Below, in pieces: positions 2,907 to 29,308 of a stretch of 46,905 nucleotides of DNA. The position numbers were made by a program, and so were the translations under genes. Source of the DNA: a virus; the IMG/VR virus record IMGVR_UViG_2850695442_000001; one strand, 5' to 3'. Within the stretch, counting starts at the first letter, position 1; each line of letters begins with the position of its first letter. The notes beneath the pieces were generated by a model that worked only from the letters and a program-made list of their open reading frames with translations, did no database searches and was not told where the DNA came from.

Positions 2907-2982
2907 AGGACTTGTTTGAGTCCTTTTTTTGTACTGCGAGATAATAAATTATTACAAACATTAACCATTAGGAGGATACTAT

Positions 2983-3084
2983 ATGTTTCATTTAGGTTCA
3001 TATCTTCGCTTTGTTTTTACTTATGGCTTGGCATATCTTGTTATTTTCATTGGTCTTATGATTACTTGGCTCGTATTGACGTAA
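2983..3084 (+). CDS. 33-aa single-TM peptide MFHLGSYLRFVFTYGLAYLVIFIGLMITWLVLT
   Basis: Perfect AGGAGG RBS at 2970-2975. First ORF after the promoter at 2906-2945; ends 8 nt before the T4CP start. Not in the ORF track. Confidence 0.6.
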   Translation: MFHLGSYLRFVFTYGLAYLVIFIGLMITWLVLT

Positions 3085-3092
3085 GGGGGACT

Positions 3093-5756
3093 ATGAGAGA
3101 AAAATCATCCAATATCATACAAAAACGAAAAAAGTCGAAAATAAAAAAGCAAGTAAAGCTCGACTTGCCTGAGGCTATCCAACGTTTTTTTGAAAAGGCA
3201 TTAGTCAAACGTTTCGATTTTAAACAACTCATTATTTTCTTTGAAGTTTCTGAAAAGATTTTATGGGGCGTCACAGGTGCCACATCTTTAGTTACACTTT
3301 ATAGTGCTTTTTCGCCACTTGTCCATTTATCACCGTTGCTTATCATTGTCATCTGTATCACAACGATTTTTTTAGGGAGTTTGGCTTACAAATATTCAAT
3401 GGATTTAGCTTCTCGTGAGTCTGCATTGAAGCAAGACCCCAAGACAAAGATAAAAGTACAAGAAAAACGGATTAAAGCTTATCTCTATTTGATAGCTTCT
3501 AATTTTTATATCGCGGTCACTTTTTTTCTGACCGTGGAATTACAACCCCTTATCTATACACAGCTTGCTACGAATCAACTATTAAATGAGAGTCATGCAG
3601 GCTTTATGCCATCTGCCCTATCAAAAGCGCTTTGGTTTAATTATAACCATCTGCCCTATGCTTTGTTAATTATGCTGCCTGCACTTTTGCCAGCGAGTTT
3701 GATTGTTTATACGCAAACTTTTGAGTTGTTTATTAAGATGCGACCACTGTTTGACCAATGGGGACAATCACGTTACTTTAAGTCAAATACCTTTGACCCA
3801 GTGATTGAAAACCGGGGAGCTGAACATGTTCCCTATGTCAGAATTGGTCTTAATGTTGCTACACAATCTGACTTGTATCTTTCTCCAAGTTCTCGTGCGG
3901 TAGGCATACACATTGTAGGTCCTATGGGAACAGGTAAAACGGCGGCAATCATGCACCCCGTTTTGCGACAAGATGCTTATAAGGTCTTTATGTATTGGCA
4001 TGATTATGCCGAAGCACGACGGAAATTTTCAGATTTTAAATCTTTTGAAAAATACTGGTTTGTCGAGGAAAGAAACGGACAGTATATCAATGGCTGGAAA
4101 GTGATAGACCCTTCTAATAGCTTAGCTTCGGATATGTTTTCAGAGCTTCTAGCAATGGGCGTGCCACGTGAAGCGATTACTTATTTGAACCCACCTGACC
4201 CATTGACAGATGCCATGCAGGCGTATTCTGGAAAATTGGAAGCTTCTGTCACAACAAACGTCTCTACCTTGATGGAACTTGTGACGCGTGGCTCCACAAA
4301 CCCTCATCCTTTTTTCACGGCACAAGCTCAAACTTATCTTGAAAATGCCCTCTTTTTAGTCAAGTTTTCATCAGAAATTCCTAATCCGATTGATAAAGAA
4401 ATAGGCAATCCTTCTTATGATGAAATTTTTGAAGTTATCCTCTTAGGGACAGAAGATATTCGTTACCAACGAATGTTAGCCCTTGAAAAGTTTGTCGCTA
4501 TTCTGGAAAATCGCTACACCAAAGAAGCAGGAAAACCAAAAGTAACGCCACAGGAAGAAGCAGACTTTGAGGATTTAGAGAACCGTTATAAAATCGCAAA
4601 AACAACGTTGCGTAACTGGAAAAGTTGGCTAGAGGTTCAAGAAGATAAAAGTGGGAAAGTGACCATTATTGATAAAATGGATAATAATGTGGATGGACTC
4701 CGTGTCAATGTCGCACGTTTAGCACAAAAGACAGGGATTCGCCGTATTCTTACGCGAAAGACGACCTTTGATTTTGATGTCTTAATGAAGTTTGGAGGCT
4801 TTTTAATTGTCAATACCTCAACAGAAGAATTAGGAGTGGATGCCCCTATTGTCGGTAAGCTCGTCTCTATGAACTATCAAAATGCTGTCATGCGCCGAAT
4901 GAATAATATTGACCGCGGAGGACAGATAAAAGAAGATGCCAATCATAATGCTTGGTTTTCAAGTGCCGACGATGAAAAGCCCCCTTATTTGACAAGTAGT
5001 GAACCAGATTTCATGTCCAACTCGCGTAAATATAAAGCAATGGGGATATTTGGACATCAAACGAATGCACAGTTTGATTTGTATTTGGATAAAGCTGCGC
5101 GTGATACTTTGCTTACCGGCTTGCGAAATGAATTTGTTTATCAAGATTTGAATGAAGAAGATGCGAAACACTATTCAACGGCTTTCGGTAATAAATTAAC
5201 GATTGATGCACAATATTCTAAGCAAGTCTATGATGAAGATGGCAATGTGGACGGTGGACGTACAACCGCACGAGAAACGATTGTAGAAAAGCCCAATGCG
5301 AGTCCTGATGATTTGGTTACTTTACCCCAGTTTTATATGGCTGGACGTTACTTTAATGGCAAAGAAGAAGAACCCTTTGTTCTCCTTCGTGCGTATCCTT
5401 TCTTTGAAGAAAAACTGCAAAAACCAGCCTTTAATCGTGATGATTTTGATTTATGGTATGCGGACGTTCAAGAAGCTTTGGAAAATGCGAAGAGCAAAAA
5501 TGATGTGGATGCCTTTGCACCGGAAAGTGTTGAGATTATCCGACAAATCGAAGAACGTCAAAAAGCAGAGAGCTTGATGATAAGGAGTGGTAAAGATGAT
5601 TTCCGGAAAGAACTTGGACAGCAGATTAAGCCACAAGAACCTCTCGTCCATTCTTCTAAGGCAAAACAAAAGAGTTTAGAAGAAGCCATAAATTCTACAC
5701 TCGCTGTTCTTGATAAAGAGCCTTATGAGAGTAATGTAGATTCAGAAAAATATTAA
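3093..5756 (+). CDS. Type IV coupling protein (VirD4/TraG-like ATPase)
   Basis: N-terminal TM segments, Walker A GPMGTGKT, Walker B-like ADDE, and SRKYKAMGIFGHQTNAQ (RK-x-G...Q-x-x-x-Q) motif. Start reassigned to ATG 3093 after AAGGGGG. Confidence 0.85.
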   Translation: MREKSSNIIQKRKKSKIKKQVKLDLPEAIQRFFEKALVKRFDFKQLIIFFEVSEKILWGVTGATSLVTLYSAFSPLVHLSPLLIIVICITTIFLGSLAYKYSMDLASRESALKQDPKTKIKVQEKRIKAYLYLIASNFYIAVTFFLTVELQPLIYTQLATNQLLNESHAGFMPSALSKALWFNYNHLPYALLIMLPALLPASLIVYTQTFELFIKMRPLFDQWGQSRYFKSNTFDPVIENRGAEHVPYVRIGLNVATQSDLYLSPSSRAVGIHIVGPMGTGKTAAIMHPVLRQDAYKVFMYWHDYAEARRKFSDFKSFEKYWFVEERNGQYINGWKVIDPSNSLASDMFSELLAMGVPREAITYLNPPDPLTDAMQAYSGKLEASVTTNVSTLMELVTRGSTNPHPFFTAQAQTYLENALFLVKFSSEIPNPIDKEIGNPSYDEIFEVILLGTEDIRYQRMLALEKFVAILENRYTKEAGKPKVTPQEEADFEDLENRYKIAKTTLRNWKSWLEVQEDKSGKVTIIDKMDNNVDGLRVNVARLAQKTGIRRILTRKTTFDFDVLMKFGGFLIVNTSTEELGVDAPIVGKLVSMNYQNAVMRRMNNIDRGGQIKEDANHNAWFSSADDEKPPYLTSSEPDFMSNSRKYKAMGIFGHQTNAQFDLYLDKAARDTLLTGLRNEFVYQDLNEEDAKHYSTAFGNKLTIDAQYSKQVYDEDGNVDGGRTTARETIVEKPNASPDDLVTLPQFYMAGRYFNGKEEEPFVLLRAYPFFEEKLQKPAFNRDDFDLWYADVQEALENAKSKNDVDAFAPESVEIIRQIEERQKAESLMIRSGKDDFRKELGQQIKPQEPLVHSSKAKQKSLEEAINSTLAVLDKEPYESNVDSEKY

Positions 5757-5867: not shown

Positions 5868-6797
5868 TTGTTACAACTAACAGAATTACAACTTGACTTT
5901 ATCAAGGTCTTGTACCCTTTCAATGAATTGACCTATGCACAATTTAATCAGCTTTGGAAAAATGTATCAGGTGTCAAAACTAAAATTTCTTCACAACTAC
6001 TCAAAAAGATTGAAGGACTTGGTTTAATGACCCGGAAGCTTGATGAGGGACAACAACGAAATGCCAAGTATATTATCAATCAAGAGGAAATTAAGAACTT
6101 GTTGGAAAACACGGCGCGTGATGTCTTACTTGATGTCCCTCCTGCTTTTTACCAAGATGCTCTCCCTGTCAAAGTCAAAGCAAGAACGCCAAACTTTCAT
6201 GATGAAGCGTTAAAAACGCTCTTGATTTCTACTATTTCTACAGAAACAGGCACACTCATTTTTCCAAGGATTAAAACTTTTGTGGAGCATATGATGATAC
6301 CTGATGCCATTATTGTAAAAGACGATAGGATGACTTACTTTGAATACGATAACCTTACGGAAGAAGCTGCTTCATTTTTAACCAAACTCCCTCGTTATCT
6401 TTATGAGAGTAAGAAAAATCCAGAGGTAAAAGTGAACCTTATCTGTGTCTTTACAGATGAAACAATCCAACTGAAAGGCTATAACAACAAAAGAGTGAGT
6501 CCTCCTTACTCTCGAATGCAGAGTCTCACAGAAAAGGCAGGACACATTAAAGCTTTAAATGGCTTACCATTTTTAGAAGAACTTGAGAAGCAAAAAAATC
6601 TGACGCTCTACTTTTTCACTTATAATGAAGTCCTCCAACGGTTAGGTCCACTATTAAATGGAGAAATCTTTCCTGACTTTGTTCAGCGAGAGTATCCAAA
6701 AGTTGAAGAAAAAAAGAAAAAAGTAAAAGTCCAACAACTTAAACAAGAAAAAACAAAAGAACCACAAGATAAACACGAAAAATATATCTTTGAATAA
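5868..6797 (+). CDS. Replication-relaxation family (Replic_Relax / MOB_C-like) protein, paralogue 1
   Basis: N-terminal wHTH-like region, FHD, IPDA...FEYD-x-x-TE...K-x-x-RY PD-(D/E)xK-type motifs. Directly downstream of the T4CP, as in MOB_C loci. Confidence 0.7.
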   Translation: MLQLTELQLDFIKVLYPFNELTYAQFNQLWKNVSGVKTKISSQLLKKIEGLGLMTRKLDEGQQRNAKYIINQEEIKNLLENTARDVLLDVPPAFYQDALPVKVKARTPNFHDEALKTLLISTISTETGTLIFPRIKTFVEHMMIPDAIIVKDDRMTYFEYDNLTEEAASFLTKLPRYLYESKKNPEVKVNLICVFTDETIQLKGYNNKRVSPPYSRMQSLTEKAGHIKALNGLPFLEELEKQKNLTLYFFTYNEVLQRLGPLLNGEIFPDFVQREYPKVEEKKKKVKVQQLKQEKTKEPQDKHEKYIFE

Positions 6798-7946: not shown

Positions 7947-8026
7947 CCGATAAAGAAGGACTTTTGTCCTTCTTATTTTTTTCCGGTGAGATAATGTAAG
8001 GAGTAAAAGAAAGCGAGAAAATAATT

Positions 8027-8398
8027 ATGAGTAAAACAATTAAAGCTGTTGGTTTAAAGATGAACGTTAACCGGATTAAGGGATTGCCTGATGGCATCAA
8101 GAATGCTTATTTAAAACGAGTAGCTACTAATGGAGAGCTGATTTTTGTTGGCAATACTAATGATGCGGCAAAATGGGAAGAAAATAATGAAAATATCAAG
8201 AAGCTCGAAAGATTCGCCAAAGAGCATGAATTAGAATTCGCATGGTTTGAATTGGAGGAGCATTCAGCTTCCAAAATCACTAAGCAAAGTAACGGCTTGA
8301 CATTAGAGACGACAGCTACTGCCTTGTCTGAAAAAGAAGCAGAAAAGATGCTAGAGCAGGTTTCTGGAATAGAAATTACAGGGAGTCCCGTAAAATGA
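8027..8398 (+). CDS. Hypothetical protein
   Basis: 123 aa, downstream of the element-type promoter at 7956-7995. Confidence 0.65.
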   Translation: MSKTIKAVGLKMNVNRIKGLPDGIKNAYLKRVATNGELIFVGNTNDAAKWEENNENIKKLERFAKEHELEFAWFELEEHSASKITKQSNGLTLETTATALSEKEAEKMLEQVSGIEITGSPVK

Positions 8399-8649
8399 AA
8401 AAAATCATAAAAAACATATGGAAATATTTTTGCTCACTTTTTAGCTCAAAAGAAAAAACGAGAATAACAGTGACAACTGATTTTGGAACTGAAAAAATAG
8501 TAATTGATGCAAAAGGAGAATCTGTAGAGCAACTTATATCAAAAGGTGCTTCAATAACTTTTATAGATTTTGGTGCCAAAGAAACTGTAGAAAATGCGAA
8601 GAATAAAAATGAGGCGGATAACTTTGTATTGGAAAACAAGGAGGTTTAA
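8395..8649 (+). CDS. Hypothetical protein
   Basis: 84 aa, translationally coupled to the previous ORF. Confidence 0.5.
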   Translation: MKKIIKNIWKYFCSLFSSKEKTRITVTTDFGTEKIVIDAKGESVEQLISKGASITFIDFGAKETVENAKNKNEADNFVLENKEV

Positions 8650-8823
8650 ATGTATAAGAAAGATTTTACAGAATGGCAATTATCTAAAGGGTTTGATATG
8701 GAAAAATTGAGAAATTTATTTAATCAAAGCCTTCCAGAATTCATGGTTATCTTAATGATGATGGATATCTTGTTATTTACCAAATAGACGCTAATCATCA
8801 AAAATATAAAAGCAGTTAATTCA

Positions 8824-8843
8824 GCGCCCTTCGGGGCGTTTTT
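8824..8843 (+). terminator. Intrinsic terminator
   Basis: GCGCCC-TTCG-GGGCGT followed by a T-run. Confidence 0.75.
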
Positions 8844-8851
8844 CATATCTC

Positions 8852-9230
8852 TTGTAAATAAGATATAAAATGTTATACTAAAGTTAGTCTTATGAATACA
8901 TTTAAAGCCTTCCTACTATGTAGAGGCTTTTCTTATCGATGAAATCATGTTATACTACCAGTGAGGGAGCTTGGTGAAACTCCTCAGCTGTTTTTCTTCT
9001 AGCTGCTCTTAACGGGGCAGCTTTCCCATTTTTTGCAATTAAAAGTTTATATGTTATACTTAGTTTTGGGAGGACGCACCCTCCCATCCATATTCTTTGA
9101 TTCCGTCTTTTACGAGGCGGTTTCTTGTTGCCCTTGTAATTAAATTATATTGTGCTATACTTAGCACATGGGGAGGTCGCTTGTCTCCCCATCTGTTTTG
9201 CCGCCTTGTCATCTAGGGCGGTTTTTGTTT
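8852..9230 (+). ncRNA. sRNA cassette block A (4 promoter-hairpin-terminator units)
   Basis: TGnTATACT extended -10 boxes at 8871, 8948, 9052 and 9153; TTGYAA -35 boxes at 8852, 9033 and 9134. Each is followed by a terminator within ~45-65 nt. Units 2-4 have a 5' GGAG/CTCC hairpin. Confidence 0.7.
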
Positions 9231-9354
9231 CTCAATTTGACAGTCAGGATTATTAGTGTTACCATAAACTTGTAGGTTTTGTCACGAGTTAAATGTTTAG
9301 GAGTACACTTTTCGCACAATAGGATTTACAACTTTTGTGAAAGGAAGTATTAGT

Positions 9355-9552
9355 ATGAAACAAGGAACAGTATGGTTTAATATAACCAAAAGCTATGGCT
9401 TCATTATTACTGATGATGGGAAAGATGCTTTTGTATATTTTTCGGGGTTCAGGTTTGATAGTTCAAGAAGGCTTGATGAGGGACAAAAAGTTACATTTGA
9501 TATTGCGAATAGTTCTCAAGGACCATATGCTTCTAATATCATAAAAAGGTAA
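9355..9552 (+). CDS. Cold-shock protein, divergent copy
   Basis: RNP1 KSYGFI and altered RNP2 (VYFS); lacks the K of GTVKWFN. TTGACA(9237)-17-TACCAT promoter and long 5' UTR. Confidence 0.85.
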   Translation: MKQGTVWFNITKSYGFIITDDGKDAFVYFSGFRFDSSRRLDEGQKVTFDIANSSQGPYASNIIKR

Positions 9553-9631
9553 ACAAAGCTAGGTTCTCATCAATCTTATAGGTTTTATCGATAGTTGATA
9601 AAGCTACTTCCTTGTGGGGCATTTTTTGTTC

Positions 9632-10027
9632 TTGCAATTAGTTTTTAAAGTGTTACATTTAGTTTAGAGAGGTATGCTCTCTAACGTTTCTATTACCACC
9701 TTTCACGAGGTGGTTTCTTGTTGTCATGGTTATAAAATGTTATAATGAACCTGTAAGAGGCCCCTTTCTCTTAACCCTTTCCTAAGCCGCTCTACTTGAG
9801 CGGCTTTTTTGTTGTCCTTGCAATTAAGTTTTAAAGTGTTATACTTAGCAGGCAGGGAGTGTTTGACTCCTTGTCAATCCCGTCCTGTCCAATCACAACA
9901 GGGCGGTTTTTATTACCTTTGTAATTAATAGATATTATGTTATACTGAGACGGGGAAGATTAGTTGCTTCCCTTACAGTTTTTACATCCTTAATTAAATC
10001 GTTCTTACAACAGAACGATTTAATTAA
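9632..10027 (+). ncRNA. sRNA cassette block B (4 promoter-hairpin-terminator units)
   Basis: Extended -10 boxes at 9651, 9738, 9837 and 9938; TTGYAA at 9632, 9818 and 9919. 5' hairpins at 9664-9684, 9754-9773, 9851-9875 and 9952-9973. 3' hairpins at 9695-9719, 9784-9810, 9880-9911 and 9990-10027. Confidence 0.7.
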
Positions 10028-10151
10028 ATTTGACAATTTTAACTATTAGTGTTAGACTAACAAAGTAAATTTTGTCATGAGTTAAATGTATTTTTAGAAT
10101 CACTTTTCACAAAATAAGGTTTACAATTTTTGCTGAAAGGAAATAATTAAC

Positions 10152-10352
10152 ATGGCAAATGGAACTGTAAAATGGTTTAATGCAACAAAGGGTTTTGGAT
10201 TTATTACCGCTGAAGATGGTAAGGATGTGTTTGCACACTTCTCACAAATTCAAGATGGTGGATTCAAAACACTTGATGAAGGTCAAAAAGTGACTTTTGA
10301 AATTGAAGATGGTCAACGTGGACCACAGGCTGTAAATATCGAAAAAGCTTAA
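10152..10352 (+). CDS. Cold-shock protein (lactococcal CspD/CspE-like)
   Basis: [18 protein letters not shown]...VFAHFS...[16 protein letters not shown] promoter at 10030, leader homologous to the first csp leader, terminator at 10371-10398. Confidence 0.95.
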
Positions 10353-10472
10353 TATTAGGTTGAATAGATTCCAAAGTAGAGATGCTTTGGTTTTTTTATG
10401 CTAAAATTGTGCTATAATGAGAGGTCTTTAACCTTATAAGGTAAGCTGGATAATTTATCCAGCTTCCTTTTT

Positions 10473-10516
10473 GGTTCTTTAGCTCAATTGATTAGACTTA
10501 ACGGCTCTAATGGTTC
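10473..10516 (+). pseudogene. tRNA 5' fragment (degenerate copy of the tRNA at 11813)
   Basis: GGTTCTTTAGCTCAATTGATTAGACTTAACGGCTCTAA, preceded by the same promoter/leader as the 11.8-kb copy. Confidence 0.6.
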
Positions 10517-10661
10517 ATAGAATCCCTGTCTTTTGGTGGGTATTTTTTATCGTTAAAATCTAATTTTATTAATTACGACTTGAAAAATCAAAGATAAATA
10601 TGTAAAATAAATGTAATTATAAAAAATGTATCAGTAAGATTGTGCAACCAAAGGAAAATTT

Positions 10662-11300
10662 ATGGGAAAGATAACATCAAATGTTTCGGCAGCAAAAGAA
10701 GCTGTGAGTGGTTTTGAGAAGATAGAAAAACCAGATTTTAAAAAGATTAATCTTGGTCAGAGTAATGTTCAGGGAATGAAAAATGCTTTAGAATTGTCTG
10801 AGATGTTAGGGAAAACAGTAAATGGGTTGCTTGATGTGACAAAAAAGCAAGCTGAAAAGATTGTAAAACTCGCTGAGAAAAAAGAACAAGATGATAAAAA
10901 CGATTCATCAATTTTTGGTAGTCATGTCAGTGGTGGTTCTGGCGGTGGACGCGGCTTTGACAATACCAAGGTTAAGGATAGTTGGATAAAAGTCGGTCAA
11001 AATGTTTCTGAGAATGCCGGCGTTTATTTCAAAGAAACCGACAAAAATTCTCCTGCGTATTCTGTCGATTTTGGAAAAGTGATAGAAAACATTTCAGGAG
11101 GTATGGTAGGGGCTTATGGGACTATAGCTCCTAATATAAATCCGAATCCTATCCCTCCTAAAAGAGAGAATCATACTGAGGAAGTTATTAATAATATAGG
11201 GCAGGGATATGATACAGCACTAGAGAACTCAAATGGTTATCAAAATGATAATTATCAGACCTCTCCATATGGTAAAGGTGGCACACCAAATGAACAATAG
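10662..11300 (+). CDS. T7SS TIGR04197/DUF3130-like (Lap) N-terminal domain fused to an unknown C-terminal extension
   Basis: First ~85 aa (GKITSNVSAAKEAV...AEKKEQDDK) resemble the 12151 protein, followed by GGSGGGRGF and ~115 further aa. Confidence 0.55.
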   Translation: MGKITSNVSAAKEAVSGFEKIEKPDFKKINLGQSNVQGMKNALELSEMLGKTVNGLLDVTKKQAEKIVKLAEKKEQDDKNDSSIFGSHVSGGSGGGRGFDNTKVKDSWIKVGQNVSENAGVYFKETDKNSPAYSVDFGKVIENISGGMVGAYGTIAPNINPNPIPPKRENHTEEVINNIGQGYDTALENSNGYQNDNYQTSPYGKGGTPNEQ

Positions 11301-11712: not shown

Positions 11713-11812
11713 GAACACTAACGCGATAGACAAATTGTTTTTTAAACCCCAGCCAATTATGCTATAATGATTAAGTCTTTAACCTTATAAGGTAAGCTGG
11801 ATAATTATCCAG

Positions 11813-11886
11813 CTCCTTTTAGCTCAGTTGGTTAGAGCTAACGACTCATAACCGTTCGGTCGCTGGTTCGAGTCCAGCAAGAACCA
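11813..11886 (+). tRNA. tRNA with CAT anticodon (Met/Ile2), acceptor stem disrupted (likely pseudo-tRNA)
   Basis: D-arm AGCTCAGTTGGTTAGAGC, loop CTCATAA, T-arm GCTGGTTCGAGTCCAGC, 3' AAGAACCA. The 5' arm CTCCTTT pairs at only 3 of 7 positions. Confidence 0.75.
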
Positions 11887-28360: not shown

Positions 28361-29308
28361 ATGGTATTTGAACAAGAGCTTCATCTTGATTTTATTAAAT
28401 TGTTATATCCGTTTACATGGCTTTCCTATGCGCAAATAAATCAACTATGGAAAAACGCATCGGGGTCAAAAACTAAAATGCCGTCAGGTTTATTAAAAAA
28501 ATTAGAAAGTGAGGGGATAATAAAACGAAAAATAGCAGAAGGTAGAAAACGTGGTGCTCAGTATCACATAAGACAAGAAAAAATCAAACAATTTTTTTCT
28601 GGAACAACTAGAGATGTGTTGAACAATATATTGCCTGCCTTTTTTCGAGATGCATTCCCAGTAAAAAGTCCATCTCACACTATCAATTTTCATAATGAAG
28701 CTTTAAAAAATGTACTTGTTTCATTTTATTCTCCATATTTTGATTCTTTAGTATTACCACGGATAAAAACAGATACTAAGGATATTATAATACCAGACGC
28801 TATTCTTTGTAAGGGGGACTTTTTTTCTTACCTTGAATATGATAATCTAACAGAGGAGAGAGCAGCGTTGTTGTCTAAAATACCTAGATATCTTTACGTA
28901 GCTAAACAACAACCAAATAAAAAGCACAAGTTAATTATTGTTTTTACAGATGAAACTACAATTGTTAAAGGATTTCAAAGGAAAAGAAAGAGTCCCCCAT
29001 TTCATCGTATGGAAAATTTTGTTTCTGCTGTAAAGAAAATTAAGGCACTAAATGGCTTGCCTCTGGTTGGAGAGATAAGTAAGCAAGAAAACTTTGAACT
29101 TTATTTATTCACTTATAGAGAGGCTATACAATACTTGGAGTCTTTATTTAAAGGAAAATCTTTCCCTGATTATTTTCATCGTGAATTTACAATGGCTTTT
29201 GGTGATAATTTTAAAAATCTTCAAAAGCAGAGCGAGAGTTTAAATAGTCAGAATATAGAAAGCCTTAATCAGAAGAAAAGTCAAGCAAGCAAATATTTTT
29301 TTGAATAA
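28361..29308 (+). CDS. Replication-relaxation family (Replic_Relax / MOB_C-like) protein, paralogue 2
   Basis: Collinear with 5868..6797: LDFIKxLYPF, IPDA, EYDNLTEE, PRYLY, VFTDET, IKALNGLP, KYxFE. Confidence 0.7.
   Translation: MVFEQELHLDFIKLLYPFTWLSYAQINQLWKNASGSKTKMPSGLLKKLESEGIIKRKIAEGRKRGAQYHIRQEKIKQFFSGTTRDVLNNILPAFFRDAFPVKSPSHTINFHNEALKNVLVSFYSPYFDSLVLPRIKTDTKDIIIPDAILCKGDFFSYLEYDNLTEERAALLSKIPRYLYVAKQQPNKKHKLIIVFTDETTIVKGFQRKRKSPPFHRMENFVSAVKKIKALNGLPLVGEISKQENFELYLFTYREAIQYLESLFKGKSFPDYFHREFTMAFGDNFKNLQKQSESLNSQNIESLNQKKSQASKYFFE

Follow-up and report, generated by a model that had tools for sequence, protein, structure and literature searches.

The stretch of DNA analysed here, referred to as the window (46,905 nucleotides; IMG/VR virus record IMGVR_UViG_2850695442_000001), carries across positions 8852-10030 an array of eight promoter-to-terminator units of 52-78 nt each, which is interleaved with two cold-shock protein (csp) genes in the order four units, csp, four units, csp. 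The window corresponds to G000:C1:251379-298283, inside the 2.70-Mb main contig (chromosome) of a 2.76-Mb Lactococcus genome, and is considered to be an integrated conjugative element (ICE) because of its gene content, which includes a coupling protein, Replic_Relax proteins, an adhesin and a sortase. The array is interpreted as a mobile set of independently transcribed sibling trans-acting small RNAs (sRNAs) of the LhrC/UCCC-motif kind, located within a csp/tRNA-Met island; by analogy with known sibling sRNAs, this reading as a whole is given a probability of roughly 45%. Its parts differ in strength: the units are very probably real sRNA genes, while action through pairing of a CU-rich seed is a tentative proposal. 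Transcription of the window locus itself is predicted from its sequence, and the base-pairing mechanism, the targets and any role of the Csp proteins are likewise putative. The original observation of eight cassettes interleaved with two csp genes in this layout is confirmed by promoter, terminator and folding scans. The units, with their predicted structures and folding z scores, are as follows; CDS, coding sequence; UTR, untranslated region; aa, amino acids.

U1, 8852..8937, + strand: promoter TTGTAA-16-TATACT with TG; predicted transcript of ~52 nt consisting of the terminator hairpin only (8906-8930); weakest of the set.
U2, 8948..9031, + strand: extended -10 only; 5' hairpin at ~8962-8986, CU-rich linker, terminator 9001-9022.
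U3, 9033..9128, + strand: promoter; 5' hairpin 9067-9086; pyrimidine-rich 16-nt linker; terminator 9103-9120; z -3.9.
U4, 9134..9230, + strand: promoter; 5' hairpin 9168-9192 from the predicted +1; terminator 9200-9222; z -4.6.
csp1 cassette, 9237..9552, + strand: own TTGACA-type promoter; ~90-nt 5' UTR; cspC-like CDS, 65 aa, most plausibly from ATG 9355 to the stop at 9552; CSD domain E 1e-16.
U5, 9632..9722, + strand: promoter TTGCAA-16-TACATT; 5' hairpin 9664-9684; linker; terminator 9695-9714; z -3.7.
U6, 9738..9814, + strand: extended -10 only; 5' hairpin 9754-9773; linker; terminator 9784-9806; z -5.2.
U7, 9818..9914, + strand: promoter; 5' hairpin 9852-9874; short linker; terminator 9880-9906; z -4.9.
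U8 (family A), 9919..10030, + strand: promoter; 5' hairpin 9953-9972; conserved linker 9973-9989; terminator 9990-10027; z -7.7.
csp2 cassette, 10030..10352, + strand: promoter, 5' UTR, cspD-like CDS 10152-10352; CSD domain E 8e-30.
U9, 10399..10516, + strand: promoter, leader hairpin 10443-10465, first third of a tRNA-Met gene.

On the + strand the TGYTATACT box occurs in exact form at 8871, 8948, 9052, 9153, 9837 and 9938, and with a single mismatch at 9738 (U6) and 10410 (U9); the U5 box at 9651 has two mismatches and was recovered by a looser cassette scan. The -35 element predicted for six of the eight units, TTGYAA with a 16-bp spacer, was located by consensus scan at 8852, 9033, 9134, 9818 and 9919, and the sixth (U5) was added by reading. 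Terminator-like sites number 16 within 8000-11000 compared to 1.6 +/- 1.4 in shuffles. Folded from a predicted transcript start at the seventh base after the -10 box, each of U3-U8 has a hairpin at its 5' end and a terminator, separated by unpaired linker sequence; their z scores range from -3.7 to -7.7, and 0/200 shuffles are equally stable; U1 is without a 5' hairpin, as had been described. The two ~400-bp unit blocks contain no open reading frame (ORF) longer than 50 aa, in line with the non-coding character first assigned to them, and both csp products contain the CSD domain. The csp1 and csp2 blocks are ~72% identical copies set 800 bp apart; csp1 (9355-9552) is a divergent cspC-like gene with altered ribonucleoprotein motifs (VWFN for KWFN, SYGFI for GFGFI), and the host chromosome has only one csp gene elsewhere (C1:2290544-2290738). 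A genome-wide cassette scan, which required an extended -10 and, 25-115 nt beyond it, a GC-containing hairpin with a T-tract, found no genuine cluster of such cassettes elsewhere in the 2.76-Mb genome, making the window array unique there; the remaining clusters reported by the scan are overlapping matches within coding sequence. The AT-rich terminator of U8 (9990-10027) is perfectly palindromic over 16 bp around a 6-nt loop and directly adjoins the csp2 -35 box; a poor U-tract makes read-through or a role as a protein operator possible.

The closest relatives of the array are found in the same genus. Genome G001 carries 7-8 promoter-hairpin-terminator units followed by one csp, one further unit and an intact tRNA-Met; an array of this type forms the right end of the 15-kb prophage bIL312 of L. 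lactis IL1403, where the annotation comprises the Csp ORF only. Positions 980-2000 of the bIL312 record (AF323673.1) are unannotated and hold at least five cassettes before csp (orf27) and one after it, matching G001 unit for unit with small differences. When the first ~30 nt of each window unit were compared to each bIL312 unit, the best matches were U2/Vc (z 5.6), U5/Vd (z 3.3), U7/Ve (z 3.3) and U8/Vg (z 12.9); these four pairs occur in the same order, and the two arrays are therefore considered homologous and collinear, with units gained and lost. U8 is 26/28 identical to family A, the name given here to its homologues, over the hairpin and linker (z 12.9). Homologues of U1, U3, U4 and U6 were absent from all DNA searched, and unit number and order vary between elements.

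In the matched pairs of the ICE and bIL312 the stem arms are nearly identical, while the loops (apart from that of U8), linkers, promoter spacers and terminators can no longer be recognised as similar. As the stem sequence stays constant while its surroundings drift, the sequence itself seems to be read out; this suggests a seed kept complementary to its cage, or a sequence-specific partner, instead of a mere structural cap. The constancy of the stems is a stronger argument than covariation, which amounts to a single compensatory pair for each of the three families A, B and C. The family A stem is kept in 9/9 variants through one compensatory and two G.U changes, and the U3/U5 terminator pair, which had been cited as an example of diverging sequence with preserved pairing, does display one double compensatory change and one change from G.U to G-C. 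The earlier proposal that structure is under selection is in agreement with the maintenance of stems in the relatives.

In L. lactis and L. cremoris chromosomes family A always directly precedes a cspD-type gene, and it does so too in plasmid pVF50 and in many dairy and gut metagenome contigs. Family B sits after that cspD-type gene, and on its upstream side are family C, another unit and a tRNA-fMet gene whose promoter is of the same type. A family C unit is also present in the unannotated DNA of at least 68 Lactococcus plasmids, and all plasmid matches are lactococcal. Islands that contain family A also carry tRNA-Met or tRNA-fMet. In pVF50 (1500-1640 and 5020-5124) family C is followed by a ~42-codon, strongly hydrophobic ORF that may encode a peptide resembling type I toxins; beside mobC, 2 kb further downstream, is the Rfam lactis-plasmid RNA motif (107 bits). 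Linkage to csp, a proposed check on the system, is thus real and recurrent in mobile elements of L. lactis and L. cremoris, and it may partly represent common descent of one duplicated island.

The csp loci searched in genomes of 16 other Lactococcus species are without cassettes, as are non-lactococcal csp loci from metagenomes; all 14 loci with at least two cassettes (14/14) are of the L. lactis/L. cremoris island type. A search for orthologues of the whole array among 60 relatives and 400 family genomes gave only G001 and G014, and blastn of the window units against phages and plasmids gave csp matches only. A pattern scan of genome contigs for family A returned Lactococcus DNA only, a metagenome scan that used csp1 as the query brought up nothing closely related to the array of the ICE, and a search with the relaxase-like protein found no related plasmid, only a truncated, array-less remnant in genome G012. 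In the L. garvieae phage PLg-TB25 (KX833905.1, 2350-2620) a csp gene is followed by two unannotated, non-coding promoter-to-terminator units of 70-100 nt, which have the layout of the window units and no sequence similarity to them.

Several homologues have already been catalogued as transcripts in L. cremoris MG1363 (PMC13109727, NAR 2026, supplementary Table T1). These comprise sLLM1228.2+ (66 nt, between cspC and cspD), sLLM1228.7+ (62 nt, after cspD), sLLM1827- (65 nt, after cspB) and the consecutive sLLM1209.8+, sLLM1209.9+ and sLLM1210+ (68, 76 and 66 nt, upstream of cspD2). The promoter string of sLLM1228.2+ is that of family A save single-base strain differences, and U8 is its sequence homologue; sLLM1228.7+ and sLLM1827- have the promoter of family B, and the terminator of sLLM1209.9+ is that of family C. 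Most of these homologues were detected in 7/7 libraries with ends deviating by 0-2 nt, the 5' end of sLLM1209.9+ deviating by 15 nt (PMC13109727). The sLLM1228.2+ transcript starts at the first G of its hairpin, and the sLLM1228.7+ transcript at the first base of its stem, so that a 5' hairpin beginning at +1 is experimentally grounded for families A and B. Furthermore, sLLM1209.9+ is identical to LLMGnc_095, and the 297-nt sLLM1226+ upstream of the cspC locus spans LLMGnc_097, 098 and 099; in this tandem trio, LLMGnc_099 is 3.7-fold up after 5 min at 10 C (PMC5603721, Table 3). Neither study gives these sRNAs a function or mentions their linkage to csp (PMC13109727; PMC5603721). With discrete homologues of 62-76 nt that have defined ends, autonomous small non-coding RNA genes are the best reading of the units, as first suggested. 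Rfam searches of the window and four homologous loci, at gathering thresholds and at E <= 10, recovered only tRNA, SRP and the unrelated lactis-plasmid motif; the window units and families A-C have no counterpart in Rfam.

The composition of the RNAs is distinctive. Across 13 units (U3-U8 and seven of G001) the 5' arms are 79% purine and contain GGAG, GAGAG, GGGAG or GGAAAG, and pyrimidines make up 70% of the core, which runs from the 3' arm of the first hairpin through the terminator's 5' arm, compared to a + strand background of 44.5% (p ~1e-14); each RNA is a CU-rich tract with purine-rich arms clamping both ends. Each predicted RNA of ~52-78 nt begins with a hairpin at +1 or within one base of it, with a purine-rich arm resembling a Shine-Dalgarno (SD) sequence on its 5' side, and continues into the pyrimidine-rich core and an intrinsic terminator. 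In the proposed mechanism, protection of the RNA would fall to the hairpin at its 5' end, and the CU-rich sequence of the 3' arm and linker would act as a partly caged seed, which opens to pair with purine-rich ribosome-binding regions, possible targets including the adjoining csp mRNAs. The whole csp, tRNA-Met and small-RNA island moves among Lactococcus ICEs, a satellite prophage, plasmids and chromosomes. Lactococcus and the streptococci are not known to possess Hfq or ProQ, and the lack of Hfq in Lactococcus makes structure-caged seeds and alternative chaperones plausible; assisted unfolding of the RNAs is a candidate role for Csp. The pyrimidine richness is significant, and it fits a seed directed to ribosome-binding sites and a Csp ligand equally. 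Pairing of family A with its own csp mRNA was considered and rejected; an 8-10-bp match exists in the window, but a central mismatch breaks it in L. lactis.

A number of results weigh against sibling sRNAs with caged seeds. Duplex energies of the CU-rich cores and linkers with 400 host translation-initiation regions equal those of composition-matched shuffles, the top-ranked targets predicted from 1780 regions do not stand out and show no enrichment on the ICE, and no extended complementarity of the units to the genome exceeds chance. UCCC is present in 5/8 units, mainly in the 3' arms of stems; its count (5, compared to 2.2 in shuffles, P 0.06) is marginal and the motif is mostly in stems, not loops. 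The anti-SD signal originally attributed to most of the units is no stronger than base composition would give. U1 and U2 fold poorly, the former (z -1.8) having no 5' hairpin and the latter (z -1.0) an ambiguous or alternative fold. The covariation evidence is real but thin, with one compensatory pair per family among 4-11 distinct sequences. Lastly, the MG1363 homologues are of low abundance, ~8-50 counts per million (CPM), and none of them is verified by Northern blot (PMC13109727).

The linker of U8 displays an unexpected identity to a host gene. Positions 9972-9990 of the window form a 19-nt perfect same-sense match to the CDS of an RluA-family pseudouridine synthase (host C1:2573604-2573622), which scores 38.2 bits compared to a shuffle maximum of 32.2 (E 2.4e-4); none of the other units has an above-chance match in the genome. 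The L. lactis family A linker agrees with the codons of its own synthase orthologue at 15/17 positions, and the two positions that separate the synthase genes of the two species differ likewise in the sRNAs; the L. cremoris HP copy of family A agrees at 10/17 only. Being identical in sense, the U8 linker cannot pair with the synthase mRNA. The identity could mark a mimic or a sponge, reflect a protein or RNA partner in common, or be a relic; complementarity of the linker to rRNA is equal to that of shuffles.

The claim that no described system has this architecture was too strong, as homologues have been catalogued and the LhrC1-5 and PeSL systems are known. The array is an expanded, mobile variant of sibling sRNA arrays whose smaller relatives are already in the catalogue. 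Nearest to it are the sRNAs of three csp loci in MG1363 (sLLM1228.2+, sLLM1228.7+, sLLM1209.8+/1209.9+/1210+, sLLM1827- and sLLM1226+), which share the promoter type, the length of 62-76 nt, the 5'-terminal hairpin with terminator and the position between or beside csp genes, and which have families B and C in related arrays; they differ in having 1-3 units per chromosomal locus, where eight are packed here on an ICE, and have not been described as a family or as csp-linked.

LhrC1-5 of Listeria monocytogenes are sibling sRNAs with two stem-loops and CU-rich UCCC sites in a stem-loop, in a single-stranded stretch and in the terminator loop; stem-loop A opens on binding the SD region of a target (PMC4132741). 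The window units resemble them in being multicopy, in having a promoter and terminator each, and in their two stem-loops and G-poor, CU-rich sequence, UCCC-type motifs being present in 5/8 units. LhrC blocks SD regions in a Firmicute host and does not need Hfq; similar pairing by the window units is proposed by analogy. However, the LhrC covariance model has no match in the window even at E <= 10, and the LhrC motifs are in loops and single strands, whereas those of the window units are mainly in the 3' arm of stems. LhrC copies are also near-identical and LisRK-controlled, while the window units differ in sequence and have constitutive-looking promoters; unlike LhrC, the locus is carried by mobile elements and linked to genes for Csp and tRNA.

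Two further systems were compared. The cia-dependent small RNAs (csRNAs) of streptococci are small sibling sRNAs of the Streptococcaceae with two stem-loops and an anti-SD/anti-AUG stretch, and their promoters have a CiaR direct repeat in place of the -35 box; a CiaR-type promoter repeat was not seen on reading the array, and the Rfam search gave no csRNA match. The type III antitoxins ToxI and antiQ are tandem, near-identical repeats of ~35 nt beside an endoribonuclease toxin gene; the window units share their junctions only, and no toxin family of Pfam is represented among the ORFs neighbouring the array.

The alternative that survives best, although unlikely, is derived from the promoter-early stem-loop (PeSL) cassettes of T4-type phages, a documented precedent in which a strong sigma70-type promoter and a terminator stem-loop repeatedly mark the cassette borders of a plastic region and conserved junctions flank variable cargo (PMC2839356). 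The junctions would then be recombination and insulation modules of a hyperplastic cargo region that holds csp, tRNA genes, small ORFs or next to nothing, and the short RNAs would be by-products of little function. Consistent with this, the conserved direct-repeat families D1-D4 cover exactly the terminator-promoter junctions (terminator 3' arm, T-tract and promoter) while the unit interiors are unrelated; the islands hold csp, tRNA-fMet, tRNA-Met and small ORFs, each monocistronic under one promoter type. The differing unit count and order among elements and the weak expression of the MG1363 homologues also fit. U9, the ninth unit, is a demonstrable scar of a tRNA cassette; it is a degenerate duplicate of the tRNA-Met cassette 11755-11886, with 78-80% identity to 11755-11857 and to C1:571636. 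The original count of eight units was borne out, and this scar after csp2, at 10410-10477, had been missed. The promoter, leader hairpin and 5' part of tRNA-Met occur in three copies in the genome (10391-10516; 11755-11886; G000:C1:571636-571758), of which only the copy ending at 11886 has an intact tRNA-Met and the one after csp2 is truncated; the leader hairpin with its U-tract resembles a terminator set before the tRNA. Against empty cassettes stands the conservation of the interiors, in addition to the junctions, across widely differing elements and across species: the family A hairpin and linker are shared by G000, L. lactis and L. cremoris, and the stems of U2, U5 and U7 are kept relative to bIL312 while their flanks have diverged. 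A consistent purine/pyrimidine asymmetry and a hairpin at +1 would also not be expected of them. PeSL cargo, moreover, consists of protein-coding ORFans in a T4-type phage, whereas the cargo here is mostly a conserved 30-40-nt structured non-coding insert on an ICE.

It is distinctly unlikely that the units are protein-binding RNAs, whose pyrimidine-rich single-stranded cores would bind the co-encoded Csp as substrate, sponge or client, or bind another protein, and could tune Csp autoregulation. Overexpression of cold-box RNA derepresses cspA in E. coli, and in Lactococcus every locus found to have the cassettes also has linked genes of the cspA-D type. The 70% pyrimidine content of the cores is compatible with this role, as is the enrichment of the Csp-like motif UUCUU (6 compared to 1.8 in shuffles, P 0.005), which resembles the T/U-rich heptamers preferred by Bacillus CspB; however, terminator tails supply part of that excess. 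A YUGUCA box noted by eye in those csp 5' UTRs that were read recurs in some terminator loops and linkers, with a TGTCA count (2 compared to 0.6) that is not significant. The MG1363 homologues, at ~10-50 CPM, contrast with very abundant Csp in the proteome tables of the same study; titration of Csp is therefore implausible and a sponge role unlikely. The csp linkage may reflect descent from one duplicated island, given the cassette-free csp loci of the 16 other Lactococcus species, and selection for single-strand binding would not be expected to conserve the sequence of a stem.

An improbable elaboration, which would join the caged-seed sRNAs to their neighbours, treats Csp, the initiator or elongator tRNA-Met and the hairpin-caged CU-rich sRNAs as one system, a mobile 'translation-start' island. 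Csp would melt the SD-like and anti-SD-like hairpins in the cold or after transfer, the sRNAs would reprogramme the translation of host mRNAs, and family A would track a host gene through its linker, which co-varies with the RluA-family synthase CDS.

The window carries the following cargo in addition to the array, which lies ~2-3.5 kb downstream of the relaxase-like gene.

2916-5756: TraG/VirD4-type coupling protein gene.
5868-6797 and 28361-29308: two Replic_Relax protein genes.
Further cargo: LPXTG adhesin, sortase, LXG toxin, IS110 transposase, tRNA-Met.
RNA-repair pair: kinase-HD (Pnk-HD) and Rnl1.

This setting is what recommends a role in counteracting defence as the element enters a cell, with the units acting as RNA anti-CRISPRs, as tRNA or rRNA mimics, or as antitoxin RNAs, which is nonetheless very improbable. 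Other RNA-centred cargo (tRNA-Met and the Pnk-HD and Rnl1 pair) is on the element, the genes for the coupling protein and the relaxase-like protein lie a few kb upstream of the array, and the host has a type II-A-like CRISPR array as judged by its repeat. The latter lies outside the window at G000:C1:744613-747290 and contains 41 repeats of 36 nt with 30-nt spacers, so that active-looking adaptive immunity is present in the host of the ICE. No unit resembles the 36-nt repeat of this host in sense or antisense, however, and the idea of an RNA anti-CRISPR (Racr) was rejected; unlike ToxI or antiQ, the units are not repeats of one sequence, their complementarity to rRNA is not above that of shuffles, and the homologues reside stably in chromosomal csp loci with no obvious mobility of these loci. 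Micro-ORFs, in which the SD-like 5' arms drive translation of 9-17-codon peptides, are scarcely credible and were rejected since the frames are not conserved: U2, U4 and U8 have, by reading, a GTG or TTG 4-5 nt after the SD-like arm, but the family A frame has 9, 11 or 17 codons and only 3 in L. cremoris HP (cut at codon 4), the U2 homologue has no frame, and the SD-like motif is sequestered in the hairpin.

As a natural eight-member array, the locus brings the catalogued MG1363 sRNAs together in a single group of families, which accompanies cold-shock and tRNA-Met genes on ICEs, on a satellite prophage and on dairy plasmids. It gives a concrete hypothesis for what these sRNAs do, namely caged CU-rich seeds that are possibly Csp-assisted. 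If the RNAs are mere by-products of their cassettes, the array would be an example of PeSL-like modular shuffling outside T4-type phages; if they matter for cold adaptation or for the establishment of incoming elements, they would be relevant, through the dairy plasmids that carry them, to the robustness of starter cultures.

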